Below, piece after piece: positions 14,082 through 60,596 of a stretch of DNA of 64,000 nucleotides. Both the position numbers and the translations under genes were made by a program. Numbering within the stretch: position 1 is the first letter of the stretch; every line of letters begins with the position of its first letter. The DNA is taken from the NCBI GenBank assembly GCA_028277845.1, contig JANQFL010000087.1, positions 13,704 through 77,703 of the forward strand. The letters run 5' to 3'. Below the pieces are notes generated by a model. The model saw only the letters and a list, made by a program, of their open reading frames with translations, made no database searches and was not told the origin of the DNA. This stretch comes from Sneathiellales bacterium (GTDB lineage Bacteria > Pseudomonadota > Alphaproteobacteria > JANQFL01).

Positions 14082-15925
14082 GAGGACCCGCCCTGGCCCG
14101 TGGCGGCCACCGGGGGCTGCTGCGCGAGGGCATGAAACAGCTCGGTCGACCGGTACAGCGACTGATAGGTGCCCTGTGCCGCCAGGCGGCCGTCTTCGAG
14201 GACGAAAATGGTATCGCACTCGGCGATGGTGGAAATGCGGTGGGCGACGGTGATGGTGGTCACTTCGCCTTTCAGTTTGGCCACCGTATCCTGGATCAGT
14301 TTTTCGGTGCCGGTGTCGAGCGAACTTGTCGCCTCGTCCAGCACAAGGATATCGGGCGCGTCATACAGCGCCCGGGCAATGGTGACGCGCTGGCGCTGAC
14401 CGCCGGAAAGCCGCAGGCCGCGGTCTCCCATCACCGTGTCGAGGCCGTCATCCAACTCGGCGACCACGTCGGTCAAGCCGGCCTTGTCGAGGGCGCGGCG
14501 TACCTTGTCGTTGTCGATGTCGGCGTCGGGCACGCCAAAGGCGACATTGCGCCGCAGTGTATCGTTGGCGATGAACGGCGACTGAGGCACATAGCCAATT
14601 CGGCCGAACCAGTTCGATCGGGCGAAGTCGGTGATGTCCGTGTCATCCAAACGCACGTGACCGTCGGTCGGCGGCAAAACACCGAGCAGGATGTCGACGA
14701 ACGTCGACTTGCCCGCGCCCGATGGGCCGACCACGCCGACCGATTGACCGCGGGCTATCGCCAGGGAAATGCGATCGAGCGCGGTGGCGGTCGTGCCCGG
14801 GTAGGAAAAACTGACGGCATCGAAGTGGATGGCCGACCACTCGTCCGGTACCTTGGCGCCACCACTGGGCTTCCCCCATTCCGTTTCCGCCGCCGCCAGT
14901 TCGGCGCGCAAGTCGGCGAGTCCCCTGGTATAGGCCCTGACCTTGGCCAGTTTCGTGATGGTACCGACAACACGGGACAGGGCAGGGATAAGACGGGCGC
15001 TGATCAATCCCAGCAAAGCGACCTGCGAGGCGATTTCGCCGGTGCTGGCACCGGCACCGAACAGGGACACCGCGACGATGATCAGTCCGAGCTGGCCGGT
15101 CAACAGCAGCCCCATCGGCACGGCCCGTTGCAGCAGTTGCGCCTTCATACGGCTTGTGGCGGCCCTGTGATAGAGACGTGTGTACATGCTGGTGAAGAAC
15201 CCTTGACGGGCCTTGACCTGGATATCCTTGATGCCGTTGACCGCCTCGACGCCAAGCTGGCTGCAATGCAGCCATTGGGTCCGTTCGTCGGCGGCGTAGC
15301 GGGCGATGCGTGGGCGAATGACCGCCATCATCATGACGGCGGCGAAGGCGATAATCGCGGCGACGGCAACGATCGCCTGCCACGGCAAGGCAACCGCCAC
15401 CACCGCAAAGGCAAAGACAAGCAGCAGCGAGGTGTACACCAGCTCCATGACCGTCGGATACAGCGACACCGCCGTGTTGGTCGGATCTTTGTAGAGCCGA
15501 TGGGACAGCATCGCCGCATTCTGGCGCAGGAACCAGACATAGGGTGCCTTGAGGCAGCGATTGAGCAGGTCGTTGGCCAGATAACGCCCGATACGGACAC
15601 TGAGGATTTCGGTCATGAACAGCGAGAAATAGCTGCCGATAACGCCCAGAACCAGCAGGCTCGCGGCGATAAGGCCGAGCATCTGGATCAACTCCCGTTC
15701 CGTGTCGGTCGCCAGGATATCGGCGATCTTTTGCAGCCATTCGCTGCGCTGAAGCATGGTCGGTTCGACCACCAGCGTCACGAAAGGCGCCGCCGAGGAT
15801 AGGGCGACCATTTCCAGGGCGCTGGTGAACACGAACAGCAGCAGGATCGCAGCCGCGGCAGTCTTCTGCCGGGCCGTCAGGAACGACCAGCCGATGGCGA
15901 CGATATTGGTTGACGGTTTCGTCAT
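14078..15925 (-). CDS. ABC transporter, fused permease/ATP-binding exporter
   Basis: N-terminal hydrophobic helices; Walker A GPSGAGKST, signature LSGGQRQR, Walker B ILVLDEATS. Start at Met 21 (MTKPSTNIV) avoids overlap with the upstream gene. Confidence 0.85.
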   Translation of the reverse strand: MTKPSTNIVAIGWSFLTARQKTAAAAILLLFVFTSALEMVALSSAAPFVTLVVEPTMLQRSEWLQKIADILATDTERELIQMLGLIAASLLVLGVIGSYFSLFMTEILSVRIGRYLANDLLNRCLKAPYVWFLRQNAAMLSHRLYKDPTNTAVSLYPTVMELVYTSLLLVFAFAVVAVALPWQAIVAVAAIIAFAAVMMMAVIRPRIARYAADERTQWLHCSQLGVEAVNGIKDIQVKARQGFFTSMYTRLYHRAATSRMKAQLLQRAVPMGLLLTGQLGLIIVAVSLFGAGASTGEIASQVALLGLISARLIPALSRVVGTITKLAKVRAYTRGLADLRAELAAAETEWGKPSGGAKVPDEWSAIHFDAVSFSYPGTTATALDRISLAIARGQSVGVVGPSGAGKSTFVDILLGVLPPTDGHVRLDDTDITDFARSNWFGRIGYVPQSPFIANDTLRRNVAFGVPDADIDNDKVRRALDKAGLTDVVAELDDGLDTVMGDRGLRLSGGQRQRVTIARALYDAPDILVLDEATSSLDTGTEKLIQDTVAKLKGEVTTITVAHRISTIAECDTIFVLEDGRLAAQGTYQSLYRSTELFHALAQQPPVAATGQGGSS

Positions 15926-15950
15926 GGATTCAGTTTGGAGTTCGCCCGCC

Positions 15951-17654
15951 TCAATAATCGGCGATGAACTTGTAGCTGTCCGCACGGTCCATCTTGTAGG
16001 AATGGTAGTGCATCCGGTCGGAATGGAACCAGCCGTGCAGCAGATCGGTTTCCTGTTGCAGCGGGGCGGGATTGTCGCTCACGACCTTCCGGTAATCCTC
16101 ATACAGGGCGAAGATCGCCGAATCGTCGCCGGTGACGAAACTGTCCTGCCAATCGGGATGGCAGAAGAACCAACCGGCAAAGACCTTGGCGCTCTCCCGT
16201 GTCTTGGCCAGATCCAGGTCGTTCCACCAGGGCCGTTTGAGGCAATCGATGTATTCTTCGCGGGATCGGCACCAGGTGCCGACGCCGCAATCGTGGAACC
16301 AACCGCGGTCCGCCATCAACGACGGCTTGCCGAGATACGCGTATTCGATGGCGGCGGTGCCGGTACAGGTGATGACGGCGTCGACGCAGTCCATCACCGC
16401 CCGGCCGTTCCAGCCCTGGGGCGCTATCTGGACATGGCCGGCCATGCGCTCGCCGATATAGTCGGCCAACGACGCGCCGCCGTACCACAGATCGCAGGGG
16501 TGGGGCTTGAACAGCCAGTAGACGTCGGTGTTTTGCTTGGCGATATCGACCGTCAGGGAAATCCAGTCGAGATAGTCTGTGAAGTTGTTGAGCCCGAACA
16601 CGTGCGGATAGTCGAACCAGTTGGAGGCATAGACGCCGACGATGGGCTTGTCCTCGGTCCAGCCGAAGCGCTGGCGCAATTGCTCCCGGTCGATGTGGTC
16701 GTTGGCGTTGATGTAGGCATACAAGGTGCCCAGATCCAACGTCTTGCCGTTGAGGCGGTTGTCCAGGTACGAGCCGCCGACCTCGGACAGGGACCCCAGC
16801 TGTTGCGGGCTCAGGTTTCGGGCGTGTTCGACCGGCAGGCGGTCGACCCAATCGAAGATGGCTTCGCGCGAGCGGATCTTCCAGTATCGCGGCACGCCGT
16901 AGCAACCGTACAGCACCACCGCCGGAATACCGAGCGATAGGGCGACATAAGCCAGCGCGCCATAACGGAACTCGATGACATGGCTGAGGATCAGCAGGGA
17001 CGTGCGTTCGGCCGACAATATGCGTTCGGCGGCGTCGATGCTCAGCAAGGCTTCGGCGACGTGGTCCTCCAGTTTCGGGTCCGCCATGTCGATGGTGCCG
17101 AGGCGGCGACGCTTGAGAATGCCGTCATAGACCCAGCCGCCGGGAAAGCCGTGCGGCAGGTCCCATTCCATCATGTCTTCCGGACGATCGGTCATATCCA
17201 GAAGCTGTCGTGCCCGGCGGCGGGCGTCCTTGAGGCCGGAACGGAAGTGTTTTTCAAACCGCACCGTGTCATTGATGCCGAGACGGTTCATGGTCTCCTT
17301 GGCCTCGCGGGTGCGCCACTTGCCGACGATGCCGACCTCGTTGGCGGTCGGCAGCCCGAGGGCCTTGCGCAACAAGGTCAGGCGCCACCAGTAGTTCGGA
17401 TTGAACCACATGCCGTCGATCAGCACCCGGTCCGGGAACGTCTTGTCCGTCGACTCGGCGATCTGCCGGAACAGATTCTCCGCCGGAATTCGCTGGCGTT
17501 GAATCTCCTGCCAGCGCGCCCGTTCGGACGGTGTGATTCGGCGGCGCAGCATTTGGCCCTGGGCGTAAAGGTGCTTCGCCGCGGTTAACATGCGCGAAGA
17601 GGCCTTCGACAAGGGCGACGGACGGGTATTTGATTCTGAGGTGGAAACGGTCAT
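15951..17654 (-). CDS. capsule-polysaccharide-biosynthesis-like protein (KpsC/KpsS/LpsZ-like fold with KPHP motif); candidate glycosyltransferase
   Basis: 567 aa with WLFKPHP motif. Family assignment tentative; start could also be Met 22 (17591). Confidence 0.45.
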   Translation of the reverse strand: MTVSTSESNTRPSPLSKASSRMLTAAKHLYAQGQMLRRRITPSERARWQEIQRQRIPAENLFRQIAESTDKTFPDRVLIDGMWFNPNYWWRLTLLRKALGLPTANEVGIVGKWRTREAKETMNRLGINDTVRFEKHFRSGLKDARRRARQLLDMTDRPEDMMEWDLPHGFPGGWVYDGILKRRRLGTIDMADPKLEDHVAEALLSIDAAERILSAERTSLLILSHVIEFRYGALAYVALSLGIPAVVLYGCYGVPRYWKIRSREAIFDWVDRLPVEHARNLSPQQLGSLSEVGGSYLDNRLNGKTLDLGTLYAYINANDHIDREQLRQRFGWTEDKPIVGVYASNWFDYPHVFGLNNFTDYLDWISLTVDIAKQNTDVYWLFKPHPCDLWYGGASLADYIGERMAGHVQIAPQGWNGRAVMDCVDAVITCTGTAAIEYAYLGKPSLMADRGWFHDCGVGTWCRSREEYIDCLKRPWWNDLDLAKTRESAKVFAGWFFCHPDWQDSFVTGDDSAIFALYEDYRKVVSDNPAPLQQETDLLHGWFHSDRMHYHSYKMDRADSYKFIADY

Positions 17655-17687
17655 AGCTGCGTTAAGTATCGGCGCCGGTCGGGGCGG

Positions 17688-18617
17688 TTAGACTTCATAT
17701 CCCAACGACGTCAGATCGTGGTCGAACATGGTGGCCAGCTTGCGGTTCGATTCGCGCCATTTCTCCCGCGCCCAATCGGGGACATGCCGGTCCACTTGCG
17801 CCAACGTCGTATCGCGCTTGTTGGGAAAACGCGATGACAATAGGCGCGCCGCCTGGCGGGCCCGCAGATGAGCCGAAAACGGCAATATGCCGGCCTCGTT
17901 GTGCTGGGTCTGGCAGAACCGGTTGGCAAACCGGTACAAACCACGCCACGGTTCGGAGAACGACACATTGACCGGTTCCTGACGCGGTTCGAAGTCCGGG
18001 TCGACACCGATGAATTCAAAGATGTCGCGGAAAAACCGGGTCCGATTGGCCTTGAGGTCCTCGAAGAACAGCACCTTGAAGTTTTCGCGGCCGAACTTCT
18101 CCTGGGCATAGGCGACGTAGCGGTCGTAGCACAGCTTCTCGAAGATATTGAGATGGCCGGTGCGCTCGAAATTACCACGCGGAATGTTCATGCTGATGGC
18201 CGGCGACGCGTGCTCGGACAGGAAGCCCTTCACATCGAGTACGCCGCCTTCCATGACATAGGCGTTCCAGGCCGAGCGCACGTAGGATTTCTGTTCGCGC
18301 AGGACGATGAACGCCTTGACGCCCGGCATAAGGTCGCTCAGCAGGTCGATGATCATGCGCGCACCGGCGCCGTCGAAGGCATGACCCGACATCGCTTCGG
18401 CGCTGAACACGGATTTCTTTGCCGCCGGCTTGGCATTCGAGAACGGCATGGCCCGCAGCTTGTCGAGGAACGCCGCACGGTCGAATTCAAAGGAATAGTC
18501 CCGCAATTCGAAGAACAGCCCCTTGTGATCGCGCCAGGAAAAATTGATCTCCGGATGCGCGTCCATGGCCACCATCTGCAGGTACGACGATCCCGTCTTG
18601 GGCAGGCCAAGATGCAA
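17688..18617 (-). CDS. sulfotransferase (second copy, different family from 4475..5350)
   Basis: PAPS-binding-like LHLGLPKTGSSYLQ motif. The ORF-track N-terminus overlaps the upstream gene by ~200 nt and is Arg/Ser/Pro-rich, so a non-ATG start near 18617-18656 is inferred (TTG at 18617 chosen; CTG at 18632 or 18656 possible). Confidence 0.55.
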   Translation of the reverse strand: MHLGLPKTGSSYLQMVAMDAHPEINFSWRDHKGLFFELRDYSFEFDRAAFLDKLRAMPFSNAKPAAKKSVFSAEAMSGHAFDGAGARMIIDLLSDLMPGVKAFIVLREQKSYVRSAWNAYVMEGGVLDVKGFLSEHASPAISMNIPRGNFERTGHLNIFEKLCYDRYVAYAQEKFGRENFKVLFFEDLKANRTRFFRDIFEFIGVDPDFEPRQEPVNVSFSEPWRGLYRFANRFCQTQHNEAGILPFSAHLRARQAARLLSSRFPNKRDTTLAQVDRHVPDWAREKWRESNRKLATMFDHDLTSLGYEV

Positions 18618-18657
18618 GACGTCGAACGGCAGGGCGTTATCCGATCGGCTAGGCAGG

Positions 18658-19365
18658 TTATTGGGCAACGGTGTTCTGCTCCAAGGTCGATGACTTGAGC
18701 GCGCCGATGACCTCGTGCGCGCTCGCCGTGGCCCAGGACGGGCCCAGTGTATCCATGATGCGGTGGGCGCGTTCCAGATCCTCCACGGTATCGACGGAGA
18801 CGTTTTGCTGCGACAGGTCTTCATCGAGGCAAACATTTTCAATGCGAAACGCATCGGTGTAACGGTACATGTGGCGGGTCAGGTGTTCGCGGTCTTCCGG
18901 GTCGTCGCTGGCGGCAATGGCGCGCTGCAGCGCCTGTGTCTGGATCACTTCGACGGTCATGCCGACGGGAAAGGAACGGGGAAACGCATTCGTCGCCAGG
19001 TCTGCACCGGTGTTCTGCTGCAAATCCCGCAACTGTGTCATCACATCGATCGGCACGAACGGACTGTCGCCGGTCACACGGATAAACGTCTCCAGGCCAT
19101 GTAATTGCGCACATGCCAGCGCCCGGCCGGCAACATCATCGCACGATCCACGAAACACGCCGACCTGTTCGTTATCCGCCAGTTCCGCAATGGCGTCGTC
19201 GACCGGTCGGTCCGAGGTGGCGACGAAAATCGGCAGCGCGGGGTGCAAGGCGCGCAACCGTTCGAGCACCCGGCTCAACAACGGTTTTCCGGCCAGGGCG
19301 ATGAGGGCCTTGCCCGGCAGGCGCACCGAGTCGAAGCGGGAAAAGACGAGAATTCCGGCGGTCAT
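18658..19365 (-). CDS. cytidylyltransferase, SpsF/PseF-like (CTP_transf_3 type)
   Basis: Start at internal Met (MTAGILVFSRFDSVRLPGKAL), the characteristic N-terminus of this family; the upstream 104 codons of the ORF are low-complexity. Confidence 0.7.
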   Translation of the reverse strand: MTAGILVFSRFDSVRLPGKALIALAGKPLLSRVLERLRALHPALPIFVATSDRPVDDAIAELADNEQVGVFRGSCDDVAGRALACAQLHGLETFIRVTGDSPFVPIDVMTQLRDLQQNTGADLATNAFPRSFPVGMTVEVIQTQALQRAIAASDDPEDREHLTRHMYRYTDAFRIENVCLDEDLSQQNVSVDTVEDLERAHRIMDTLGPSWATASAHEVIGALKSSTLEQNTVAQ

Positions 19366-19369
19366 GGCG

Positions 19370-20437
19370 TCATGCGTTCGACAGTTGGTCCCACGTTTCC
19401 TTGTACCACTGGCAGTACCGCAGATAGCCGTCCTCGAGTGACCAATTCGGCTCGAAGCCCAGTTCGGTTTGGGCGCGTTCCACCGACAATGTGCCGCGGA
19501 TCGGCTTGTCCTTGGCACGCGGGCGTTCCTCCAGGATGACGTTGGGGACGACCTGCTGCACGACCGATGCAAGTTCGGCGATGGTGCGCGCGCTGCCGCG
19601 CGTGATGTTGAAGGTCTGCGACGCCGGTTTGCCGGGATGGAATGCCAAGGCTCGGATGATTCCCTGTACCAGGTCATCGATATAGGTGAAGTCCAGACGG
19701 CCGTCCCCGCCGCCTTCCAGCAGCAATGGCTTGCCGGTCATGGCGTTCTCGATGAAGATTTGGCTGACCCTGCGGCTGACGCAACGTTCGCCATACAGGG
19801 CGCTGGGGCGGATGATCGACGTGCCGATACCGTGTTGGTGGTTGTAGGTGCGGACCAGCCGTTCAGCCATATATTTGGTGTTGGCGTAGATGCCGCGCGG
19901 CCGCGGACGGGTGCTTTCGTTGACGCTGTCGCCCTCGAAGTCGCCATACACCGTGCTCGAACTCATCAGCATGACAAGATCGACGGGCGCCGCTTCCATG
20001 CGCACCAGTTCGAGCACGTTGCGCAGGGTGATCAGCTGCAAATCGAAACACAGGCCGGGGTCCTTGCGGGCCTGAACGGCGCTGGCGATCGCCGACAGAT
20101 GCACCACCTTGGTCGGCTGGTAGTCATGGAACCAACGCATCAGTTCGACCGGGTCGCGGGCGTCGGCGTTGCACAGTTGGATACCCGCGTCCTTCATCAT
20201 GGCGAACCGCGTCAGCAGGAAGTGCCGGTAGATCCGGCTTTCCAGCGGATCGGTCCGGGCTCCGTAAACGCTGTCGACCAGGCTATTGACCATGAGATTG
20301 TCGAGAACCATGACATCTATGCCCAATCGCCGCAGCTCAAGCGCCAGGTGGTGGCCGATGAAGCCTGCACCGCCGACCAACATGACACGGTCGTTTTCCA
20401 GTTTCTTGGGTACGGCGGCGTAGGAGAGGTCAGTCAT
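19370..20437 (-). CDS. NAD-dependent epimerase/dehydratase (extended SDR); first gene of the glycan island
   Basis: Rossmann motif LVGGAGFIGHHL and catalytic YANTK; AAAGGA-like RBS about 10 nt upstream of the ATG. Confidence 0.8.
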   Translation of the reverse strand: MTDLSYAAVPKKLENDRVMLVGGAGFIGHHLALELRRLGIDVMVLDNLMVNSLVDSVYGARTDPLESRIYRHFLLTRFAMMKDAGIQLCNADARDPVELMRWFHDYQPTKVVHLSAIASAVQARKDPGLCFDLQLITLRNVLELVRMEAAPVDLVMLMSSSTVYGDFEGDSVNESTRPRPRGIYANTKYMAERLVRTYNHQHGIGTSIIRPSALYGERCVSRRVSQIFIENAMTGKPLLLEGGGDGRLDFTYIDDLVQGIIRALAFHPGKPASQTFNITRGSARTIAELASVVQQVVPNVILEERPRAKDKPIRGTLSVERAQTELGFEPNWSLEDGYLRYCQWYKETWDQLSNA

Positions 20438-20467
20438 ACGTTACATCCTTTCAACTTGTCGCGATGC

Positions 20468-20742
20468 TCTGGAGCAATTCCTCTTTAGATGGAATCCATT
20501 CTGTTTCTCGAGCGGCCTGCCCATCCACCAGGAAGACGGGGCCGCGCGATGCCGGGCATCGCGCAAGCCGTCTAACGCCGTGGGGGGCGGCCGCTCGGAA
20601 ACCCGGAGGGACGGGCGTATTGGTGCCAAATCCGGCGGCTGCCGTCTCGGCCATACCCCCGGTATGGCCGTCACCGCCAGCCTTGGCCTTGGCACCAATA
20701 CGCCCGTCAGAATGTTTCCATCTAAAGAGGAATTGCTCTAGG
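20468..20742. repeat. large nested imperfect palindrome in the divergent intergenic region
   Basis: Outer arms 20468-20503 and 20708-20742 (core GAGCAATTCCTCTTTAGATGGAA / TTCCATCTAAAGAGGAATTGCTC, perfect 23 bp). Inner arms GACGGGCGTATTGGTGCCAA 20610-20629 / reverse complement 20689-20708. Central hairpin GGCCATACC-CCC-GGTATGGCC 20649-20669. Left arm carries ~105 bp extra with its own palindrome CGCGATGCCGGGCATCGCG. Confidence 0.75.
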
Positions 20743-20777
20743 TTTCGCCGAGCGATCGTAACGTCCGGAGTCCCGCA

Positions 20778-21197
20778 ATGCCTGTCATGACGGCGGAACA
20801 GATTCACAGCTTCCTGGAAGAACATTTTCCGCAGATTTCCCATCTCGATATGCGCATCGAGGATGTCCGGAAAAACGGCATCACGGTCCGGATTCCCTAT
20901 CACGAACGGCACCTGCGTCCCGGCGGCACCATATCCGGGCCGACCATGATGGCGTTGGCCGACGCCGGCACCTATCTGGCCATATTGGCCCAGCTCGGTC
21001 CGGTCGCCGAGGCCGTCACCACCAATCTGAACATCAATTTCCTCAGGAAACCCGGGCAAAACGACATCGTCGCCCAATGCAATATCCTGAAACTGGGCAA
21101 GCGGCTGGCGGTCGGCGAGGTCACCATTTTCAGCGCCGGCGAAGACGACCCCGTCGCCCACGCCACCATGACCTATTCGATCCCGCCCCGTGAATAG
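20778..21197 (+). CDS. PaaI-family (hotdog fold) thioesterase
   Basis: 139 aa; GGAG 8 nt upstream of the ATG; hotdog-thioesterase-like core (HGGTISGPTMMALADAG). Confidence 0.65.
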   Translation: MPVMTAEQIHSFLEEHFPQISHLDMRIEDVRKNGITVRIPYHERHLRPGGTISGPTMMALADAGTYLAILAQLGPVAEAVTTNLNINFLRKPGQNDIVAQCNILKLGKRLAVGEVTIFSAGEDDPVAHATMTYSIPPRE

Positions 21198-21268
21198 GGT
21201 AATATAATACCGCAATTTCAAGTTATTGAATTTGCAGCGAAATTCTTGCCGATTCTCAAACAAATGTG

Positions 21269-21297
21269 TTGACTTGCCCCTGCACCTCGACTAGAAA
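21269..21297 (+). promoter_or_regulatory. putative sigma70-type promoter for rplM-rpsI
   Basis: TTGACT - 17 nt - TAGAAA located ~70 nt upstream of the rplM ATG in an AT-rich intergenic stretch. Confidence 0.3.
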
Positions 21298-21367
21298 TCG
21301 CGCCCTGAATTCGGCTCGGCGCAGTGCCGGGCACCACGCCTGAATACAGGTTTTTTAAGGACCGACA

Positions 21368-21832
21368 ATGAAAACCTATTCCGCCAAACCCAGCGAGGTC
21401 GAGCGCAAGTGGTTGCTGATCGACGCCGAAGACGTCGTCCTCGGCCGTTTGGCCGTATACGTCGCCGACCGGCTGCGCGGCAAGCACAAGCCGATGTACA
21501 CCCCGCATATCGACTGCGGCGACAACGTCATCGTCATCAACGCCGAGAAGGTCAAGCTGACGGGCCGCAAGCGCACCGACAAGACCTACTACTGGCACAC
21601 CGGCTATCCGGGCGGCATCAAGAGCCGCACCGCCGACAAGATCCTGGACGGCGCCCATCCCGAGCGGGTGGTCGAAGCGGCCGTCAAGCGCATGCTGCCG
21701 GGCGGACCCTTGTCGCGTCAGCAGATGCGCAAGCTGAAGATCTATGCCGGCGCCGAGCACAAACACGAAGCCCAGTCGCCGGAAGTGGTCGACATCGCGG
21801 CATTGAACCCCAAGAACAAGAGGAGCGCGTAA
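21368..21832 (+). CDS. rplM: 50S ribosomal protein L13
   Basis: Conserved L13 sequence ([29 protein letters not shown]...). Confidence 0.95.
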
Positions 21833-21835
21833 TCC

Positions 21836-22336
21836 ATGAGCGAAGAAACGCGCACGTTGGATGACCTGAAAGACCTGGGCGACGCCGTCACCCCGAGTGA
21901 CGAGGCCGCGGCCGCACCGGCTGCGCCGGCGGAACCCCAGAAGGATGAATTCGGCCGGTCCTACGCCACGGGCAAGCGGAAAAACGCCGTGGCCCGCGTT
22001 TGGATCAAGCCCGGCGTCGGCCGTTTCACGGTCAACGGCAAGGACGGCGATGTCTATTTCGCCCGCCCGGTGCTGCGCATGCTGCTGCGCCAGCCGTTCA
22101 ACGCGGTCAACCGCAACGACCAGTTCGACGTGGTCTGCACGGTCAAGGGCGGCGGTCTCTCCGGCCAGGCCGGCGCCGTCCGCCACGGTATTTCCAAGGC
22201 ATTGACCCTGTTCGAGCCGGAACTGCGCCCGGCCCTGAAGCAGGGCGGCTTCCTGACCCGTGACTCCCGTGTAGTCGAGCGTAAGAAGTACGGCCGCCCC
22301 AAGGCGCGCCGCCGCTTCCAGTTCTCGAAACGCTAA
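21836..22336 (+). CDS. rpsI: 30S ribosomal protein S9
   Basis: Conserved S9 C-terminus ([19 protein letters not shown]...[25 protein letters not shown]). Confidence 0.95.
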
Positions 22337-22362
22337 CCCGACTTTACGGTCACACGAAAAAA

Positions 22363-22389
22363 GGGTTGCGTTTCGCAGCCCTTTTTTTT
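22363..22389 (+). terminator. rho-independent terminator after rpsI
   Basis: GGGTTGCG-TTT-CGCAGCCC hairpin followed by an 8-T tract. Confidence 0.6.
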
Positions 22390-22432
22390 CGCCCCGGGGC
22401 TGCGGCAACCCGTTAGGATCAGAGGCAAAACG

Positions 22433-23494
22433 GTGACGGTTATGACCAACGCAAACTCGAAGATCAAAATCGGCGTTCTCGGCGCCAGCGGCTATACGGG
22501 CGCCGATCTCGTGCGGCTCCTGCTGCTGCACCCCAACGCGGAGATCTCGCTGCTGACGGCCGACCGCCGGGCAGGGGAATCTTATGCGGCGGTCTATCCC
22601 CATCTGGCCGGGCGCGGACTGCCTGATCTGGTGGCCATCCAGGACGCCGACTGGTCGGGCGTCGATGCCGTGTTTTGCGGATTGCCCCACGGGACCACCC
22701 AGGAACTGATCGCCGCGCTGCCCGACCAGGTCAAGGTGATCGACCTGTCCGCCGATTTCCGTTTGCGTAACGCCGACACCTACGCCGAATGGTACGGTCA
22801 TGAACACCGGGCGCCGCATCTGCAGGGCGACGCCGTCTACGGCCTGACCGAACATGCCCGGGAGGCCGTCTCCGCCGCCCGCCTGGTGGCCTGCCCCGGC
22901 TGTTACCCGACCGCCGCCCTGATGGCGTTGCTGCCCCTGGTCGGCGGCGGCGTCATTGACCCCGCCGACATCGTCGTCGACGCCAAGTCGGGTGTGACCG
23001 GCGCGGGCCGGGGACTGAAGGAGGCCAATCTGTTCTGCGAGGTCGCCGAAGGCATTCATCCTTACGGAATTGCGTCGCACCGGCACGCGCCCGAAATCGA
23101 GCAGGAACTGAGCTTGGCCGCCGGCAAGGACATCCTGATCAACTTCACGCCGCATCTCATGCCCATGAACCGGGGCGAGTTGCTGACCTGCTATGTGCGC
23201 ATGACCGAGGGCCATACCGCCGACGACCTGCGCGCCACGCTGGCCGAACGGTACGACGACGAATACTTCGTCACGGTGGTCGAACCCGGCGTGGTGCCGG
23301 CGACCCGCCACATACGCGGCTCCAATCACTGCCTGATCGGTGTCTTCGCCGACCGGATACCGGGCCGGGCGATCGTCGTGTCGACGCTGGACAATCTGGT
23401 CAAGGGATCGAGCGGCCAGGCCATCCAGAACATGAACCTGATGTTCGGCCTGCCCGAAACCACGGCGTTGGAACAGGCACCACTGTTTCCGTAA
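22433..23494 (+). CDS. argC: N-acetyl-gamma-glutamyl-phosphate reductase
   Basis: NAD(P)-binding IGVLGASGYTGADLVRLL and the family active-site region; the L13/S9/argC arrangement is common in alphaproteobacteria. Confidence 0.9.
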   Translation: MTVMTNANSKIKIGVLGASGYTGADLVRLLLLHPNAEISLLTADRRAGESYAAVYPHLAGRGLPDLVAIQDADWSGVDAVFCGLPHGTTQELIAALPDQVKVIDLSADFRLRNADTYAEWYGHEHRAPHLQGDAVYGLTEHAREAVSAARLVACPGCYPTAALMALLPLVGGGVIDPADIVVDAKSGVTGAGRGLKEANLFCEVAEGIHPYGIASHRHAPEIEQELSLAAGKDILINFTPHLMPMNRGELLTCYVRMTEGHTADDLRATLAERYDDEYFVTVVEPGVVPATRHIRGSNHCLIGVFADRIPGRAIVVSTLDNLVKGSSGQAIQNMNLMFGLPETTALEQAPLFP

Positions 23495-23517
23495 ATCCAT
23501 AACCGAGTCACAGCCCC

Positions 23518-30952: not shown

Positions 30953-32731
30953 ATGGAGGATTCGGCACCGCCGTTTCTTGGTGTTGAACACTCGCTGAGC
31001 GGCAAGCGCTGGCGATCCAGGCTGACCGACGAACGGCTCGCCGCCGCCATCGCGCAGAAACTGTCGGTGCCTGAGATCATCGGCAGAGTTCTCGCGGCAC
31101 GGGACGTCGGGTTGGACGAATGCGGCCGGTACCTGGATCCCACGCTCAAGGACCTGATGCCCGATCCGTCGTGTTTGATGGAGATGGACCAGGCGTGCGA
31201 CCGTCTCGCCCGATGCATCACGGACGGCAAAACCGTCGGGGTTTTCGGCGACTACGATGTCGACGGAGCGACATCCGCGGCGGTGCTTCACCGCTTCGTC
31301 TCTATGGCGGGCGGAACCTGTCACAGCTATATTCCAGACCGGATCAAGGAAGGCTACGGCCCCAATCTTCCCGCGCTCGAGAAACTGCATGGGGACGGCG
31401 CGGACGTGATCGTGACCGTGGATTGCGGCATCACGGCGTTCGACGTTATCGATGCGGCAACCGAGCGCGGCATCGATATTATCGTGATCGATCATCACCT
31501 GGCGGAAGTGCGCCTGCCGAAGGCCGTCGCGGTCGTCAATCCAAACCGTCTGGACGACGAGAGCGGCCTCGGGCAGTTGGCCGCGGTCGGTGTAACGTTC
31601 ATGTTGATCGTCGGCGTGAACCGTCATCTGCGCCAAGCCGGATGGTACCAAACGCGGCCGGAGCCGAAACTGCAATCGCTGTTGGACCTGGTCGCACTGG
31701 GAACCGTCTGTGATGTCGTGCCTCTCAAAGGGCTGAACCGGGCGTTGGTGACGCAGGGCCTGAAAATCATGGCCAAGCGACTCAATCCCGGCCTGGTCGC
31801 CCTATCGGATGTTGCCGGCATTCACGAGCCTCCGGCGGCGTTTCATCTCGGCTACATCCTGGGTCCCAGGGTCAATGCCGGAGGACGGGTGGGTCAGCCG
31901 GATCTGGGCGCACGTCTGCTGTCGTCCGACGATCCCGATCTCGTACGGCCCATCGCACAGCGGCTGGACGACTACAACCTGGAACGCCGTGCCATCGAAG
32001 CGGCCGTGCTGGAGGAGGCGTCGCTGCAAGTAGAGACAACTGCTACGGGCGAGCCCAACGCGCCTACAATCGCCGTCGGCCAGGATTGGCATCCGGGTGT
32101 CATTGGTATCGTTGCCAGCCGCCTTAAGGACCGTTTCGGCAAACCTGCGATCGTCATTTCGCTGTCTGACGGAATAGGCAAGGGGTCTGGCCGGTCCATT
32201 CCCGGCGTCGACCTGGGCGCCGCCGTGACGGCCGCCCGCCAGGCCGGCCATCTCATCAATGGCGGCGGACACAAGATGGCAGCCGGCCTGACCGTCGATG
32301 AAGCGTCGGTTCCCGTCCTGCAAGCCTTTCTGTCGGAACGACTATCCGATGCCATTGCCGCAAGCACCCGCGGTGCCAGTCTGGGCCTGGACGGCTCCGT
32401 GACGGCTGCCGGCGCCAATCTGGATTTCGTCGGAACCTTGCAGAAGGCCGGCCCGTACGGTGCCGGAAATCCAGAGCCCCGATTCGTTATTCCCAATGCG
32501 CAAATCGTGAAGGCGGACATCGTCGGCGAAAACCATGTCCGCTGTATCATCACCGACTCGACCCGGGCACGCCTCAACACCATCGCGTTCCGGTCGGCGG
32601 ACACGGAAATGGGCCGCAACTTGTTAAACCATGGCGGGTTGACATTCCACTTGGCTGGGCATTTGCGGACCAATTTCTGGCGTGGCGAAGCCAGTGTTCA
32701 GCTTACGGTGGACGACGCGGCCAAGGCTTGA
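30953..32731 (+). CDS. recJ: single-stranded-DNA-specific exonuclease RecJ
   Basis: DHH motif (VIDHH) and DHHA1-type C-terminal region; 592 aa. Confidence 0.9.
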   Translation: MEDSAPPFLGVEHSLSGKRWRSRLTDERLAAAIAQKLSVPEIIGRVLAARDVGLDECGRYLDPTLKDLMPDPSCLMEMDQACDRLARCITDGKTVGVFGDYDVDGATSAAVLHRFVSMAGGTCHSYIPDRIKEGYGPNLPALEKLHGDGADVIVTVDCGITAFDVIDAATERGIDIIVIDHHLAEVRLPKAVAVVNPNRLDDESGLGQLAAVGVTFMLIVGVNRHLRQAGWYQTRPEPKLQSLLDLVALGTVCDVVPLKGLNRALVTQGLKIMAKRLNPGLVALSDVAGIHEPPAAFHLGYILGPRVNAGGRVGQPDLGARLLSSDDPDLVRPIAQRLDDYNLERRAIEAAVLEEASLQVETTATGEPNAPTIAVGQDWHPGVIGIVASRLKDRFGKPAIVISLSDGIGKGSGRSIPGVDLGAAVTAARQAGHLINGGGHKMAAGLTVDEASVPVLQAFLSERLSDAIAASTRGASLGLDGSVTAAGANLDFVGTLQKAGPYGAGNPEPRFVIPNAQIVKADIVGENHVRCIITDSTRARLNTIAFRSADTEMGRNLLNHGGLTFHLAGHLRTNFWRGEASVQLTVDDAAKA

Positions 32732-54940: not shown

Positions 54941-56615
54941 AATAAAGCAGCAGATAGATGGCGAGCAGGACCGCCACCCACAGTACCGTACTGCCCGTGG
55001 GCCAGGTGCGTGCCAGAATGCCTTGCGGTCCATGATGGCGGAAAACACCGGCAACGATGGTGTCGAGGTTGCGCCGGGTCCAAACGCTTGCCGACTTGTT
55101 GAACTGGACGATGGCATCGGTCAACCGGTCGACGATCACATATCCGAACACCCGGTAGAACCAATCGAAGTCCAGCGTGATGGTCAGCGTGCGTTTCATC
55201 ATCGGCAGCAGCACGAAGAAGGCCAGCCCTGCAAACAACAGCAATTGAAGCATATTGATCACGTGGGCAGCGGTGTACGGCGCGTACTGGACCGGATACG
55301 GCAATAGATCGTAGAGGAACTGGGGCCATAGTCCGATGCCGATGCAGGCCGCCGCGAACAGAATCATGGCGAGCCGCATATTCCACGGCGGATCGGGGGG
55401 CCGCATGCCGGAATCCTTCTGGAAGAACACGAACCACGGGAACTTGATGCCGGCATGCAGGAAGACGCCGGCGGACGCGGCGGTCAGCAGGAACCAGATG
55501 ATGGCCATGTGCTCGTCCGCCGCGCCTTGGCTGATCATGGATTTCGATACGAATCCCGATGTCCACGGGAACGACGAAATGGCCAGGGCACCGATGGTAC
55601 CGCATAGTGCCGTCAGCGGCATGCTTTGAAACAGTCCGCCGAGGTCGGTGCATTTGCGCTTGCCGGTCATGTACAGCACCGCACCGGCCGACATGAGCAG
55701 CAACGCCTTGTAGATGATGTGGGTAAAGGCATGGGCGGCGGCGCCATTCAGGCTCATCTCCGTACCGATGCCGATGCCCGTGACCATGAACCCGACCTGA
55801 TTGACGATGCTGTAGGCGAGAATGCGCCGCATGTCGTTTTCCAGCAGCGCATAGACGATGCCGTAGAACACCATGAAGATGCCGATATAGATCAGGATCT
55901 CGGTGCCGGGAAACCCGCGCATGAGGACATAGACCGCCGTCTTGGTGGTAAAGGCGGAGAGGAACACCGTACCGCTCCACGACGCCTCGGGATAGGCATC
56001 GGGCAGCCAGGCCGAGAGCGGCGGCGCACCGGCGTTGAGCAGGAAACCGGCGAGGATCATCCAGGTCCCGAAACTGTCGGCTTCCATGGCGCCGAAAGCC
56101 AGCGATCCGGTATCCGCCACATGGGCGACGATGCCGGTCATCAGCACGACGCCGCCCAGCAAGTGTATGATCAGATAGCGGATGGAGGCGCGGTAGGCCG
56201 CGGTCGTGGCGGCGCTCCAAATCACCATGGTCGACGCCACCGCCATGATTTCCCAGAACACGAAGGCGGTGAACAGATCACCGGCCATGGCCACGCCGAT
56301 GGCGCTGCCCGCATACACGAACCCCGCGACCAGTTCGACGGTGCGGTCCTGATTGAGCGCGAACAGGCCGCCGCCGAATGCCATGATGGCGAAGATGGTG
56401 GCGAACAGCCGTCCCAGCGAATCGGCCCGGACCGGCTCTATCACGTAGTCGAGGAACGGCAAAGCCGAAACCATGTCGCCCGGCACCTGCCAGATCGCGA
56501 ACAAAGCGAGCAACGGGAGCGCCAGAGTAAACACGGCGCGGATAGTCCGTCCGCCAAATAGAAGCAACGCGGCACCGAGGATCAGGATGAGGCCGGGCGG
56601 AAGGCTAGTCAGCAT
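54933..56615 (-). CDS. proton-pumping antiporter-like subunit (MrpD/NuoL/M/N family)
   Basis: 560 aa polytopic membrane protein with antiporter-module-like helices. Confidence 0.75.
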   Translation of the reverse strand: MLTSLPPGLILILGAALLLFGGRTIRAVFTLALPLLALFAIWQVPGDMVSALPFLDYVIEPVRADSLGRLFATIFAIMAFGGGLFALNQDRTVELVAGFVYAGSAIGVAMAGDLFTAFVFWEIMAVASTMVIWSAATTAAYRASIRYLIIHLLGGVVLMTGIVAHVADTGSLAFGAMEADSFGTWMILAGFLLNAGAPPLSAWLPDAYPEASWSGTVFLSAFTTKTAVYVLMRGFPGTEILIYIGIFMVFYGIVYALLENDMRRILAYSIVNQVGFMVTGIGIGTEMSLNGAAAHAFTHIIYKALLLMSAGAVLYMTGKRKCTDLGGLFQSMPLTALCGTIGALAISSFPWTSGFVSKSMISQGAADEHMAIIWFLLTAASAGVFLHAGIKFPWFVFFQKDSGMRPPDPPWNMRLAMILFAAACIGIGLWPQFLYDLLPYPVQYAPYTAAHVINMLQLLLFAGLAFFVLLPMMKRTLTITLDFDWFYRVFGYVIVDRLTDAIVQFNKSASVWTRRNLDTIVAGVFRHHGPQGILARTWPTGSTVLWVAVLLAIYLLLYYA

Positions 56616-56859
56616 CGTAGTAACGATCCTTCCGCTTCAAGAACACGCCCAGCCCCTTGGCGAAAAACACCATGACCGCGCAGGTCACAAAGCCGTACCA
56701 GGAAAAGAACCCGAACGTTCCATCGAGCCCGAAATGCGGGTGGCCGACGAGCCAGATGTCGGCAAGGACAAACAGGGCAAGCCCCGCCAGCCCGCCACGC
56801 CAGAGCCAGCGGATCGTGTTGGGCCGGACCAGCCAATGCAGGTCTTGTTGCTTGCTCAT
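56605..56859 (-). CDS. small hypothetical membrane protein
   Basis: 84 codons from internal Met (MSKQQDLHWLVRP...), two predicted TM helices, overlapping-stop arrangement between two antiporter-like genes. Confidence 0.35.
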   Translation of the reverse strand: MSKQQDLHWLVRPNTIRWLWRGGLAGLALFVLADIWLVGHPHFGLDGTFGFFSWYGFVTCAVMVFFAKGLGVFLKRKDRYYDAD

Positions 56860-58337
56860 TGCGGCATTCCCGTCAAAAAGCGCGCCAGGGTCAATGGCAA
56901 ATCGGGCGTGAACGCGAGAACGACCGTACCTGCCGCGGTCAATGTGAGCGCCGCGACACAGGTCCACGGGGCTTCGCCGTGATCATGGTCGTGACCATGG
57001 CCATGGGATTGGTCCGACGCATGTCCATCCTCGGGCTTGAAAAACGCGGCGTAGATGATCGGAACGAAATATCCGGCGTTCAATAGCGTACTGATGATCA
57101 AAACACCCGCGGCCACCATTTGGCCGCTATCGACCGCACCCATCAGGATGTACCACTTGCTGATGAAACCGGCCGTCGGTGGCAATCCGATCATGGACAG
57201 GGCGGCCACGGCGAAGGCGCCCATGGTCCATGGCATGCGCCGGCCGATGCCGTTGAGCTGGCTGACCTCCGTCTTGTGGCTGGCGACCAGTATGGCGCCG
57301 GCGCAAAAAAACAGCGTGATCTTGCCGAACGCATGCATGGCGACATGCAGGGTGCCGCCGACGATCCCCAGCGGCGTGGCCAGCATGGCGGCCAGAACGA
57401 TGTAGGACAACTGGCTCACCGTGGAGTAGGCGAGGCGCCGCTTGATATTGTCCTGGCGCAGGGCGACCAGAGACGCGATCACGATGGTGGCCCCGGCCAG
57501 ATAGACGAAGAACTGCCCGGAAGCCAGACCGGACACCACGTCGATCCCGAACACATAGACGACCACCTTGAGCACCGAGAATACGCCGGCCTTGACCACG
57601 GCCACGGCATGCAGCAAGGCACTGACCGGCGTCGGCGCCACCATGGCGGCCGGCAACCAGCGATGGAACGGCATGACGGCCGCCTTGCCGATGCCGAAGA
57701 CGTACAGAGCCAGCAGGACGGATAGGACGGTGCCCGATGCGCCCTGGCCGAAAATACCGCCGTCCTGGAAGTCGAGGGTGCCCGCCAAGTGCATGGTCCA
57801 GATGACCGCCGGCAGCAGGAAACCGATGGACGTGGCCAAAAGAATGCCCAGATAGGTCCGGCCGCCGGCCTTGGCGTTGTCGGTGCCGGCGTGGGTCACC
57901 AGCGGATAGGTGGACAGGGTCAGGACTTCGTAGAACACCAGCAGCGAAAACAGGTTGCCGGAAAACGCGACGCCGATGGCCGCCGAGATGGCGATGGCGA
58001 AACACACATAAAAACGGGTCTGGTTCTGCTCGTTATGTCCGCGCATGTAGCCGATGGCGTAGACCGAGGTCACGATCCACAAGAAACTGGCGACCAGGGC
58101 GAACAGCATGCCCAGGGGTTCGAGTGTGAACGAAAGCGTAATCGCGGGCAGCACTTCGAACAGCAACACCGCCGGCCGCTGGCCGTCCATAACGCCGGAC
58201 ACCAGGGAGGCCACGGTCAGAAACGTGATGGTCGCCGTGGACAGGGTGACGGCTTCACGCAGGTTCGGTGAGCGCCCGGTCACGGCGATCAGCACCGCGC
58301 CGATGAGCGGCGCCACGAACGCAACGATCATCGCCAT
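56856..58337 (-). CDS. proton-pumping antiporter-like subunit (MrpD/NuoM-like) with His-rich segment near the C-terminus
   Basis: Polytopic membrane protein of the MrpD/NuoM type; HASDQSHGHGHDHDHGEAP at ~56966-57025. Confidence 0.75.
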   Translation of the reverse strand: MAMIVAFVAPLIGAVLIAVTGRSPNLREAVTLSTATITFLTVASLVSGVMDGQRPAVLLFEVLPAITLSFTLEPLGMLFALVASFLWIVTSVYAIGYMRGHNEQNQTRFYVCFAIAISAAIGVAFSGNLFSLLVFYEVLTLSTYPLVTHAGTDNAKAGGRTYLGILLATSIGFLLPAVIWTMHLAGTLDFQDGGIFGQGASGTVLSVLLALYVFGIGKAAVMPFHRWLPAAMVAPTPVSALLHAVAVVKAGVFSVLKVVVYVFGIDVVSGLASGQFFVYLAGATIVIASLVALRQDNIKRRLAYSTVSQLSYIVLAAMLATPLGIVGGTLHVAMHAFGKITLFFCAGAILVASHKTEVSQLNGIGRRMPWTMGAFAVAALSMIGLPPTAGFISKWYILMGAVDSGQMVAAGVLIISTLLNAGYFVPIIYAAFFKPEDGHASDQSHGHGHDHDHGEAPWTCVAALTLTAAGTVVLAFTPDLPLTLARFLTGMPQ

Positions 58338-58345
58338 CTGGTCCG

Positions 58346-59827
58346 TCACGGCGCGAGTCCCAACAATTGCACCGCCGCTTGCTTGGCCACCGACACCGAC
58401 AGGTCCGTGTGAATGCCGAAATAGACGTTGGCGCCGATCAGCACCCAAGTCGGAATGAGCATGGAGAGCGGTGCTTCCTCGACGGTCGTCGCGCCGTCAG
58501 GCGATGGCCGGAAATAGGCCGCTTCCACCACCCGCCAGACATACACGACCGCAAGCAGCGACCCGACAAGCACGATCACGGCCGCCGGCCACCAGCCTTT
58601 TTCCATGGCACCCAGCAGCAGGTACCATTTGGACACGAAGCCCGCCGTCAACGGCACACCGATCAGACTGAGCCCGCCGATGACGAAAGCGAACATGGTC
58701 AGCGGCATGCGCCGTCCGGCGCCGGCGACCTGCTCGATACTGGTGGCGCCCAGCCGATAGGCGATGCAACCCAGAGCCATAAACAGGCCGCCTTTCATCA
58801 AGGCGTGGTTGAACAGGTGCAGGATGCCCGCGGTCAGGCCGCTGACATTCACCATGGCGATACCGAACACCATGTAGCCGATCTGCGCCACACTGGAATA
58901 GGCCAGCATGCGTTTCAGGTTGTTCTGGAAAATGGCGACGGTCGACGCCGTCAGGATGGCAAGCGACGCCAGGAAGATCAGGATGGGCGATTCCGGCAGG
59001 AATTCGAACGTGAAGAACTTGCCGAACACCGTGAACATGAAGCGCAGCATGACGTAGACCGAAACCTTGGTCGCCGTTGCCGCCAGAAACGCCGACACCA
59101 TCGACGGCGCGAAGGTGTACGCGTTCGGCAGCCACAAATGCAGCGGAAACAAGGCCAGCTTCAAGCCGACACCGACGAAGATAAATGCGGCCGCCGCGAC
59201 CGTGGTCGGCGAGGTCGAGACCGCCTCGATACGCACCGCCATGTCGGCGATGTTCAGGGTGCCGGTCATCATGTAGATCAAGCCGATGCCGATGAGGATA
59301 AACGTGGCACCGATGGTACCCATCACCAGGTACTGGAACGCCGCGGTCAACGCCCGCCGGTCGCGCCCCATGGCGATCAGGGCGTAGGACGACAGAGAGG
59401 AAATCTCCAGGAAAACAAAGATGTTGAAAGCATCGCCGGTGATGGTGATGCCGAGCAAACCGGTCAAACACAACAGAAATGCGGAATAGAACAGGACCTG
59501 CTTGTCCTCGGGAATTTCCTTCTCGACGCTGGCCCTGGCGAAAGTAGCGACTATGGCGGCTATGGCCGAAACGATCAGCAGCACGAAAGCATTGATCTTG
59601 TCGACCCTGTATTCGATGCCCCACGGCGGCGCCCAGTCACCGATGGCATACGATATCTCGCCGGCGTCCATGACCTGACCCAGCAGGGCGACGGATATGG
59701 CCAGGGCGAACCAGCTGACGGCAAAGGAAATGAACCAGGCCACCGTACCGTTGCGGAACAGAACCACGAACGGGGCCGCCATGAGCGGCACGACCACCTG
59801 CAATATCGGGAAGTGCGCGGCGATCAT
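58346..59827 (-). CDS. proton-pumping antiporter-like subunit (MrpA N-terminal/MrpD/NuoL-like)
   Basis: 493 aa polytopic membrane protein of the same family; first of three consecutive paralogs. Confidence 0.75.
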   Translation of the reverse strand: MIAAHFPILQVVVPLMAAPFVVLFRNGTVAWFISFAVSWFALAISVALLGQVMDAGEISYAIGDWAPPWGIEYRVDKINAFVLLIVSAIAAIVATFARASVEKEIPEDKQVLFYSAFLLCLTGLLGITITGDAFNIFVFLEISSLSSYALIAMGRDRRALTAAFQYLVMGTIGATFILIGIGLIYMMTGTLNIADMAVRIEAVSTSPTTVAAAAFIFVGVGLKLALFPLHLWLPNAYTFAPSMVSAFLAATATKVSVYVMLRFMFTVFGKFFTFEFLPESPILIFLASLAILTASTVAIFQNNLKRMLAYSSVAQIGYMVFGIAMVNVSGLTAGILHLFNHALMKGGLFMALGCIAYRLGATSIEQVAGAGRRMPLTMFAFVIGGLSLIGVPLTAGFVSKWYLLLGAMEKGWWPAAVIVLVGSLLAVVYVWRVVEAAYFRPSPDGATTVEEAPLSMLIPTWVLIGANVYFGIHTDLSVSVAKQAAVQLLGLAP

Positions 59828-60183
59828 GGTTCATCGTCCATGTGCTGGATCTCATCTTCCTCGGTCGTACCGTAGGATTCGTTGATGCGCACGATGAAGG
59901 ACAGACCCAGTGCCGTGGTGGCCACGCCGACAACGATCGCCGTCAGAATAAGGACGTGAGGCAGGGGATTGGAGAACACTTCGGGCTTACCGCTGAGAAT
60001 GGGCGCGGTGCCGCCTTCCACCTTGCCCATGCTGATATACAGCAGAAACACCGATGCCTGAAAAATGTTCAAGCCAACGATCTTTTTGACCAGGTTGCCC
60101 CGGGCCACGACGGTGTAGAACCCGGCCATCATGAGAAAGATGGCGATCCAGTAGTTGTAGTGTTCCAGAAACGCCGTCATCAC
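59824..60183 (-). CDS. mrpC: Na+/H+ antiporter subunit C (MrpC/NuoK-like)
   Basis: 119 aa, three TM helices, NuoK-like sequence (IGLNIFQASVFLLYI). Confidence 0.75.
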   Translation of the reverse strand: MMTAFLEHYNYWIAIFLMMAGFYTVVARGNLVKKIVGLNIFQASVFLLYISMGKVEGGTAPILSGKPEVFSNPLPHVLILTAIVVGVATTALGLSFIVRINESYGTTEEDEIQHMDDEP

Positions 60184-60596
60184 CGGCCCCGTCCGGTAAA
60201 CATCAGGAACACCATGATCATGACGGCGGCAACCGTGATACCGACACCCAATTCAATGAGCAGAATGCCCAGGTGCTGCCCGGCGACGCCGTCGGCCCGC
60301 AACACGCTGTAGTTCAGGAAATTGCCGCCGTTGATCATACCGACCACGCCCACCGAGGCGTACAACAGCAAGCCGAACGCCATCAGGGCCTGCAGCACCC
60401 TCGGCGGCGTCACCTTGACCGCGTTCTCGCGGCCGAAAATCAGTGCATACAGAATGAAGCCGGCGGCGAAGATGACTCCGGCCTGGAAACCGCCGCCCGG
60501 TCCGAAGTCGCCATGAAACTGAACGTACAGGCCGAACAACAGAATAAACGGGATCAGAAGCTTGGAGACGACACGGAGGACGAGATGATGCCTCAT
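60180..60596 (-). CDS. mrpB: Na+/H+ antiporter subunit B (MrpB/MnhB domain)
   Basis: MnhB-domain motif GPGGGFQAGVIFA. Confidence 0.75.
   Translation of the reverse strand: MRHHLVLRVVSKLLIPFILLFGLYVQFHGDFGPGGGFQAGVIFAAGFILYALIFGRENAVKVTPPRVLQALMAFGLLLYASVGVVGMINGGNFLNYSVLRADGVAGQHLGILLIELGVGITVAAVMIMVFLMFTGRGR

Follow-up and report, generated by a model that had tools for sequence, protein, structure and literature searches.

Between two divergently transcribed genes of the 64-kb stretch of DNA analysed here (the window) lies a large nested palindrome, and the question raised by this locus is whether it represents a mobile element, a junction left by recombination or a structure regulating the neighbouring genes. 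The two genes are the following:

19370-20437, minus strand: NAD-dependent sugar epimerase/dehydratase (Pfam PF01370, E = 8e-41; gene calls on the Logan contig L048)
20778-21197, plus strand: 4HBT/PaaI-type thioesterase (Pfam PF03061; gene order as in the related locus L049)

The palindrome ends 32 nt from the ATG of the epimerase and 37 nt from the ATG of the thioesterase, close to the 30 and 36 bp given by an earlier sequence-only reading of the region. As judged from its sequence and from that of its relatives, the segment 20470-20740 is very probably a complete 271-bp copy, probably still mobilisable, of a non-autonomous MITE of the IS630/Tc1-mariner type. The element belongs to an ordinary class of selfish bacterial DNA and is not a locus-specific regulatory device; its mild interest lies in palindromes that are modular and covary and in its location within a divergent promoter region, and it is not surprising.

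Structure of the palindrome

The nested architecture proposed by the sequence-only reading, with an outer inverted repeat of 23 bp, an inner one of 20 bp and a central hairpin, is present essentially at the positions expected. The repeat finder gives an outer inverted repeat of 26 nt, 96% complementary (20469-20494 / 20716-20741), whose perfect 23-nt core (20472-20494 / 20716-20738) can be extended to about 31-33 bp with mismatches. The inner repeat (20610-20629 / 20689-20708) is perfect over 20 bp and forms the base of a hairpin with 48-nt arms (20610-20657 / 20661-20708), closed by a perfect central stem of 9 bp (20649-20657 / 20661-20669). The additional ~105 bp of the left arm, said to contain another palindrome, correspond to a second hairpin module of ~100 nt (20503-20602) with a 10-bp perfect palindrome (20544-20553 / 20555-20564). 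The parts of the element, in order, are:

20470-20471: left target-site duplicate, degenerate, with TG instead of TA
20472-20502, plus strand: left terminal inverted repeat, made of the GAGC tip, a 9-nt variable block, TTAGATGGAATCC and TTCTG; recognised by the blocks conserved in an alignment of 16 copies and by 15 of 25 bases in common with the ISRm2011-2 left end
20503-20602, plus strand: hairpin module 1, with base stem GTTTCTCGAGCGGCC / GGCCGCTCGGAAAC and apical palindrome 20544-20564; optional in the MITE family
20603-20609, plus strand: linker between the modules (alignment columns 147-171), the place of an extra mini-hairpin in some subfamilies
20610-20708, plus strand: hairpin module 2, with 48-nt arms, a perfect 20-bp base and a perfect 9-bp apical stem; present in every full-length copy, short ones included
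20709-20738, minus strand: right terminal inverted repeat, with 14 of 25 bases in common with the ISRm2011-2 left end, in register
20739-20740: right target-site duplicate, TA, followed by G (CTAG-type target)

With its 271 bp and no coding gene, the element falls within the size expected of a MITE (below about 600 bp, no transposase gene), and its terminal inverted repeats, perfect over 23 nt, are conserved in 22 copies. The two overlapping ORFs that cover it both read FHLKRNCSR, as had been attributed to the symmetry; they are mirror images of the repeat and neither has a Pfam match. They are symmetry artefacts and not genes, and the element is non-coding; for the annotation, two false ORFs are removed and an odd palindrome is explained.

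In none of 100 dinucleotide shuffles of the window were two matches to either arm obtained. Elsewhere in the 64-kb window neither the outer-repeat nor the inner-repeat arm was found, and a scan of its whole length gave no other large inverted repeat of this kind; a marginal profile match at 31138-31241 (E = 0.009, module-1 part) sits inside a 592-codon ORF and is taken as chance.

Homologues and size classes

A plasmid search with the whole region returned one record, Aminobacter niigataensis pcAMD1, whose copy has 66% identity, with differences in the outer stem that compensate each other. A pattern built from the conserved left arm recovered 8 loci in reference genomes and MAGs and 38 metagenomic loci; 29 of the latter were confirmed as family members by BLAST, and BLAST and a profile together identify most of all these loci as the same element. 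A scan of viral contigs for the end motif gave 18 matches, 17 due to chance and one a further copy (L065). When the end alone was the query, the same ends were found on 102 plasmids of Rhizobium, Sinorhizobium and Phyllobacterium, around shorter cores; the Rhizobium copies are in fact visible only when the ends alone or relatives are used as plasmid queries. The profile links the window copy to a two-hairpin copy of S. chiapasense (E = 1e-24) and, through the ends, to a short copy of R. phaseoli.

Uniqueness of the element, indicated beforehand as the finding that would speak against a mobile element, is contradicted by these homologues and by the multi-copy nature of the family. Members of the family occur in Rhizobiaceae, in Phyllobacteriaceae and in Rhodospirillales-like MAGs, and are plentiful on plasmids of Rhizobium. 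Each of two plasmid searches matched 12 Sinorhizobium plasmid records, with no S. meliloti among the matches listed, so that the family appears barely to touch the plasmids of this genus. No description of it was found in the literature searched, whose coverage is incomplete and does not include ISfinder; this MITE family with IS630-type ends is apparently unnamed.

Full-length copies, 22 in number, have the form TA/GAGC...GCTC/TA (the slash marks the element boundary) with unrelated flanks, and come from Aminobacter, Oryzicola, Rhizobiaceae, Rhodospirillales MAGs and metagenomes. The TA is present at the left boundary in 19 of these 22 homologues and at the right boundary in 18; a C precedes the left TA in 16 copies and a G follows the right TA in 15, which gives a CTAG-like target.

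The copies fall into size classes. The standard form measures 271-290 nt, some copies having an extra mini-hairpin of 16-17 nt; in the class of 202-205 nt module 1 is absent (L011, L021, L034), and the classes of 353 nt and 383 nt carry further insertions. The 16-17-nt mini-hairpin, of the CCCCCGAACCAGGAAAATGGGGGG type, lies between the modules in L013, L016, L025, L030, L039 and L045, all of one metagenome clade, and the copy of Oryzicola mucosus (L008 1114-1197) has at the same place an extra hairpin of about 80 nt. Since the module content varies between constant ends, the element is a mosaic of optional palindromic modules.

Some loci show partial or associated elements. In L011 (about 2105-2155, minus orientation) a different palindromic mini-element of 49 nt, GAGCCTGATCCCGAAAAGTGGACACCGGTTTTCGGAAAAGATCATGCTC, abuts the copy with a common TA and has the same TA/GAGC...GCTC tips, which points to another small family with ends of this kind. 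In L037 (about 528-542, minus orientation) the right TA is followed by the 13-nt tip of another copy (GAGCCTTTCATGG) and then by unrelated sequence; this tip is what remains of a second, truncated insertion, or else a footprint. An Alphaproteobacteria MAG (L006 5115-5193) holds a solitary left-end fragment of about 80 nt, without right end, just upstream of an ORF read by eye, from its translated start, as RNase HII-like; the fragment is probably a decayed copy.

Copy number and insertion

Several copies in unrelated flanks occur within single genomes or samples. In one metagenome ten contigs carry copies that are 89-95% identical with differing flanks, and at least 13 contigs end inside the element; in Rhizobium and Sinorhizobium the two-hairpin form is found on more than 200 plasmids, and at 13 places in one S. 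mexicanum replicon. L009, a 2.7-kb MAG contig with a Rhodospirillales label, is bounded by two copies 97-98% identical to that of the window, and its interior has no match to the window.

For the source strain itself the multi-copy evidence is indirect and comes from a contig break. The Logan contig L048 is 100% identical to window positions 15370-20501 and then stops, 30 nt into the left repeat, its end being the last 31-mer that still contains the copy-specific G at 20471. Such a stop would be the behaviour of a k = 31 graph (k assumed) if the sequence from 20472 on recurs in the sample. The repeat fragments assemblies of this lineage.

The target duplication is seen with a precise empty site in R. 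phaseoli. The filled allele of strain Bra5 reads GAC-C-TA-[163 bp GAGCC...GGCTC]-TA-AGAC and the empty allele of strain N161 reads GAC-C-TA-AGAC, with a single TA, the flanks of the two being ~99% identical; five related Rhizobium plasmids, with flanks 97-99% identical, lack exactly the Bra5 element. This polymorphism is the precise insertion of a 163-bp short relative with duplication of one TA, and the family has recently been active in R. phaseoli. On the R. phaseoli plasmids (L052 2499-2504 versus L054) the insertion lies in the TA of the stop codon of an ABC-transporter gene; as the first G of the element turns the stop TAA into TAG, the gene now ends at the element boundary.

Target duplication and precise empty site are thus documented for the family and in part for the window copy, whose duplicates read TG and TA. 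No clean empty site was found for the latter, as the relatives without the element also differ in the left neighbour. Taken together, these data support the MITE proposed by the sequence-only reading and not the idea that it is a remnant, since the copy is intact and the family widespread and multi-copy.

Gene order around the element

To the right of the thioesterase the plus strand carries rplM (21368-21832), rpsI (21836-22336) and a semialdehyde dehydrogenase gene (22433-23494). A 760-codon minus-strand ORF (21218-23500) overlaps these three genes and was rejected as spurious. The order thioesterase, rplM, rpsI, semialdehyde dehydrogenase and onward is that of L049, whose thioesterase is 82% identical. 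To the left of the thioesterase, L049 and two metagenomic contigs (thioesterase 84% identical) have a divergently oriented enoyl-CoA hydratase gene, separated from it by an element-free spacer of ~150 nt; this gene is not in the window, where the epimerase is the first gene of a glycan cluster that includes a cytidylyltransferase, two unknowns and an ABC exporter. For the epimerase, identity to the best homologue is only 73%, versus 82-85% for the thioesterase; because of this low value, and because the cluster is not beside the thioesterase in relatives, the glycan cluster looks accessory. An exact-protein look-up of the thioesterase and of the identical database entry P0001 gave no match and no cluster name.

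The earlier reading of this place as an island boundary and a possible recombination junction finds partial support. An accessory-looking cluster begins on the left and gene order does break in the spacer; however, there is no G+C step at the boundary, and the palindrome is a transposon and not an att-type junction. The element sits at a gene-order breakpoint, and may have mediated the rearrangement or merely have been inserted into the new spacer. That the element, or recombination between two of its copies, created the breakpoint joining the glycan/ABC-exporter cluster to thioesterase-rplM-rpsI is consistent with the conserved order to the right as opposed to the different left neighbour in three relatives, with the gap between the two best identities and with the dispersed copies, 97-98% identical, in this lineage; it is nevertheless unlikely, since breakpoints fall in intergenic spacers anyway, where MITEs also survive, and neither a compositional step nor a second boundary of the putative island was found within the window. 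A recombinant copy would not betray itself by mismatched duplicates, since the target duplicate is TA in every case. With its divergent promoter region filled at a breakpoint, the locus is a candidate for expression effects or repeat-mediated rearrangement.

Elsewhere in the window, positions 55000-61000 show a strong, positive AT skew of 0.16-0.30 over three minus-strand genes for membrane subunits of the Mrp-antiporter/NADH-dehydrogenase type (PF00361), which is an ordinary codon-composition effect.

Folding, covariation and possible host functions

The predicted RNA fold of 20460-20750 has an energy of -203.1 kcal/mol, compared with -116.6 +/- 5.7 for shuffled sequences (z = -15.2). Conservation of the pairing was evaluated on 16 copies belonging to four clades, with 53-68% identity between clades. 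The consensus structure is 95.7% paired versus 33-44% when the partners are slid by 1-3 columns, and 28 of its 71 pairs are changed on both sides versus 8-12 in the slid controls. Pairing reaches 97% in the outer stem, where 11 pairs differ in both partners, and 99.5% at the base of module 1 (stem columns 35-48/134-146), where 5 pairs do so; in the 9-nt variable block of the ends the covariation is perfect. The covariation of the stems goes beyond common descent.

The two strands of the window copy have practically the same fold energy (-190.8 and -190.6 kcal/mol), and in the set of 22 copies the plus strand folds more stably in only 10. As there is no strand preference, the symmetry is a property of the DNA and not evidence for a strand-specific RNA; its sources are the identical ends, the palindromic modules and perhaps hairpin-templated correction. 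An apparent excess of G-U pairs in the stems (60 versus 19) was considered as RNA evidence and rejected, because this strand was the one used for predicting the structure, a single clade dominates the cells and the fold energies have no strand preference.

The element fills nearly the whole divergent intergenic region, so that the promoter of each neighbouring gene must be situated partly or entirely inside it. Outward promoters and hairpins processed by RNase III have been reported for Correia elements, and a similar co-option could be imagined here, the structure supplying promoters to the divergent genes or a 5'-UTR hairpin cut by RNase III. The short distances of 32 and 37 nt to the start codons, the stems maintained by changes on both sides and the extremely stable fold agree with such a role. 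On the other hand, no sigma-70-like promoter consensus and no intrinsic terminator (G+C-rich hairpin followed by a T run) were found in 20300-20900, no Rfam family matched 19500-21700 on either strand at E <= 1, the fold energy is equal on both strands, and copies of the family occur in divergent, convergent and stop-codon-overlapping contexts. Co-option at this locus is improbable, and the regulatory structure suggested as an option by the sequence-only reading finds no support.

A wider proposal would see in the family more than selfish DNA, with selection for a folded single-stranded DNA or a cruciform, used in transposition or by the host, to which would be added, at this locus, promoters for two divergent operons and a recombination site joining the glycan cluster to the thioesterase-rplM region. 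The pairing kept across clades that are only 53-68% identical does count against the simple neutral decay of a selfish element; the whole proposal has nonetheless a small chance of being right.

Terminal sequences and the putative transposase

IS630/Tc1-mariner elements are characterised by duplication of TA, preferably in CTAG, and binding of IS630-family transposases within the terminal repeats, before the element is cut and pasted, is established (PMC2170065). The MITE family inserts into TA with a 2-bp TA duplication. The gene of an IS630-family element on pcAMD1 served as protein query, and ten IS630-family elements of Rhizobiaceae were fetched; at these ten loci the ends start with TA/GAGC or TA/AAGC. 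Among them, ISRm2011-2 (1053 bp, annotated IS630-like transposase) and its relatives are flanked by C-TA...TA-G and start with TA/GAGCGGGATGCATTTAGGCGGAATC.

Aligned in register with the left end of ISRm2011-2, the MITE ends agree at 12-19 of 25 bases (15 and 14 for the two ends of the window copy, 17-19 for the metagenome clade), compared with a mean of 6.3 and a maximum of 15 for 6270 TA-anchored 25-mers from element-free DNA. The blocks in common are the GAGC tip, TTTAG and GGAATC, at the same distances, and the 9 nt between tip and TTTAG vary. The match to the right end of ISRm2011-2 is weaker (7-14 of 25). When a profile built from the MITE ends was compared with IS630 ends, the scores were not significant (E = 18 and 77), and the family link therefore rests on the ungapped in-register identity and the TA target. 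In elements of the ISRm2011-2 type (L084 497-1549, L082, L083, L078) the two ends agree for the first 17-19 nt only. The miniature element has left-end-like sequence, GGAATC included, at both ends.

Neither the 64-kb window nor the MITE-bearing loci fetched gave a cognate transposase gene, and none of the 10 IS630-family loci examined holds an IS with the same ends over the full length; the first 50 kb of pRL7 contain neither the element nor an autonomous parent. The IS630-family copy of Aminobacter pcAMD1 was considered as parent and rejected, being truncated and having different ends, TA/AAGCGTGTC. On this plasmid, the one with the closest homologue from a cultured bacterium, the IS630-family element (L074 21150-21575 and 1-640) starts with TA/AAGCGTGTCGCGG; near 540 the frame of its transposase seems to be interrupted. 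The assignment to IS630/Tc1-mariner is thus supported at the family level, with no specific parent singled out.

In the mechanism proposed, a DDE transposase of the IS630/Tc1-mariner type, supplied in trans, would bind the conserved blocks of both ends and excise the element through double-strand cuts; the element would then be pasted into a TA, preferably within CTAG, and the TA duplicated on repair. The window copy would have landed in this way in the spacer upstream of the thioesterase gene, and its long-range pairing would be a symmetry at the DNA level, arising from identical ends for one transposase and from palindromic modules.

Mobilisation by a transposase of the IS5 family could be considered instead, because the IS427/IS1031-type groups have GAG tips and 2-4-bp duplications. 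The GAGC tip and the CTAG-like target of the element would agree with this, as would an IS5-family transposase gene located 0.8 kb from the Aminobacter copy; however, the IS5-family element beside that copy has unrelated ends, the duplication is strictly 2 bp, TA, and it is the IS630-family elements of Rhizobiaceae that carry the same tip, TTTAG and GGAATC at equal distances, so that an IS5-type mobiliser is very improbable.

Comparison with known repeat elements

REP and REPIN sequences are short palindromes without target duplication, often near a RAYT gene, and the present family differs from them in its TA duplication and long terminal repeats. The idea of a palindromic repeat of the REP/BIME or RIME type, spread by a RAYT-type enzyme or unknown means and not by cut-and-paste, would account for the intergenic mosaic of palindromic modules in Rhizobiales-like bacteria, but is hardly credible in view of the terminal repeats, duplicated TA and precise empty site, all absent from REP-type elements, of a length far above that of RIMEs and of the 12 Sinorhizobium plasmid records per search with no S. 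meliloti among the matches listed. ERIC/IRU, BIME/REP and Bru-RS1/2 are likewise dispersed, intergenic, imperfect palindromes with modular variants; the family described here differs from them in having terminal repeats, the TA and a demonstrated empty site.

RIME1 and RIME2 are presented, in the passage of PMC2573895 that cites Osteras et al. 1995, as Rhizobium-specific intergenic mosaic elements. The likeness lies in the intergenic position, the mosaic structure and the large palindromes, in Rhizobiaceae; the difference lies in the size, and the two are set apart by description and not by sequence. RIMEs reportedly measure about 108-109 bp, compared with 271 bp here, and contain two large palindromes, TA-flanked terminal repeats reportedly not being part of their description. 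Given its size, the few Sinorhizobium plasmid records and the lack of S. meliloti among the matches listed, the element is not detectably a RIME.

The comparison with ISRm2011-2 shows a likeness in the TA duplication in a C-TA-G context, in the TA/GAGC tip and in the equally spaced TTTAG and GGAATC blocks. In contrast, the element has no transposase gene and measures 271 bp instead of 1053 bp. Each end of the element is similar to the left end of the IS, whose right end diverges after 17 nt, and the hairpin modules forming the core of the element are unrelated to the interior of the IS.

The Correia elements of Neisseria (CREE) and the cyanobacterial, IS630-derived 'Nezha' are small non-coding elements with terminal repeats of ~26-30 bp and a TA duplication; MITEs of this type have many intergenic copies and long hairpin potential and can alter the transcription of their neighbours. 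They belong to other host groups, and the present element exceeds them in size and has a core made of two hairpin modules; no sequence similarity between it and CREE or Nezha is known. The element is taken to work like the Correia elements and other TA-flanked MITEs.
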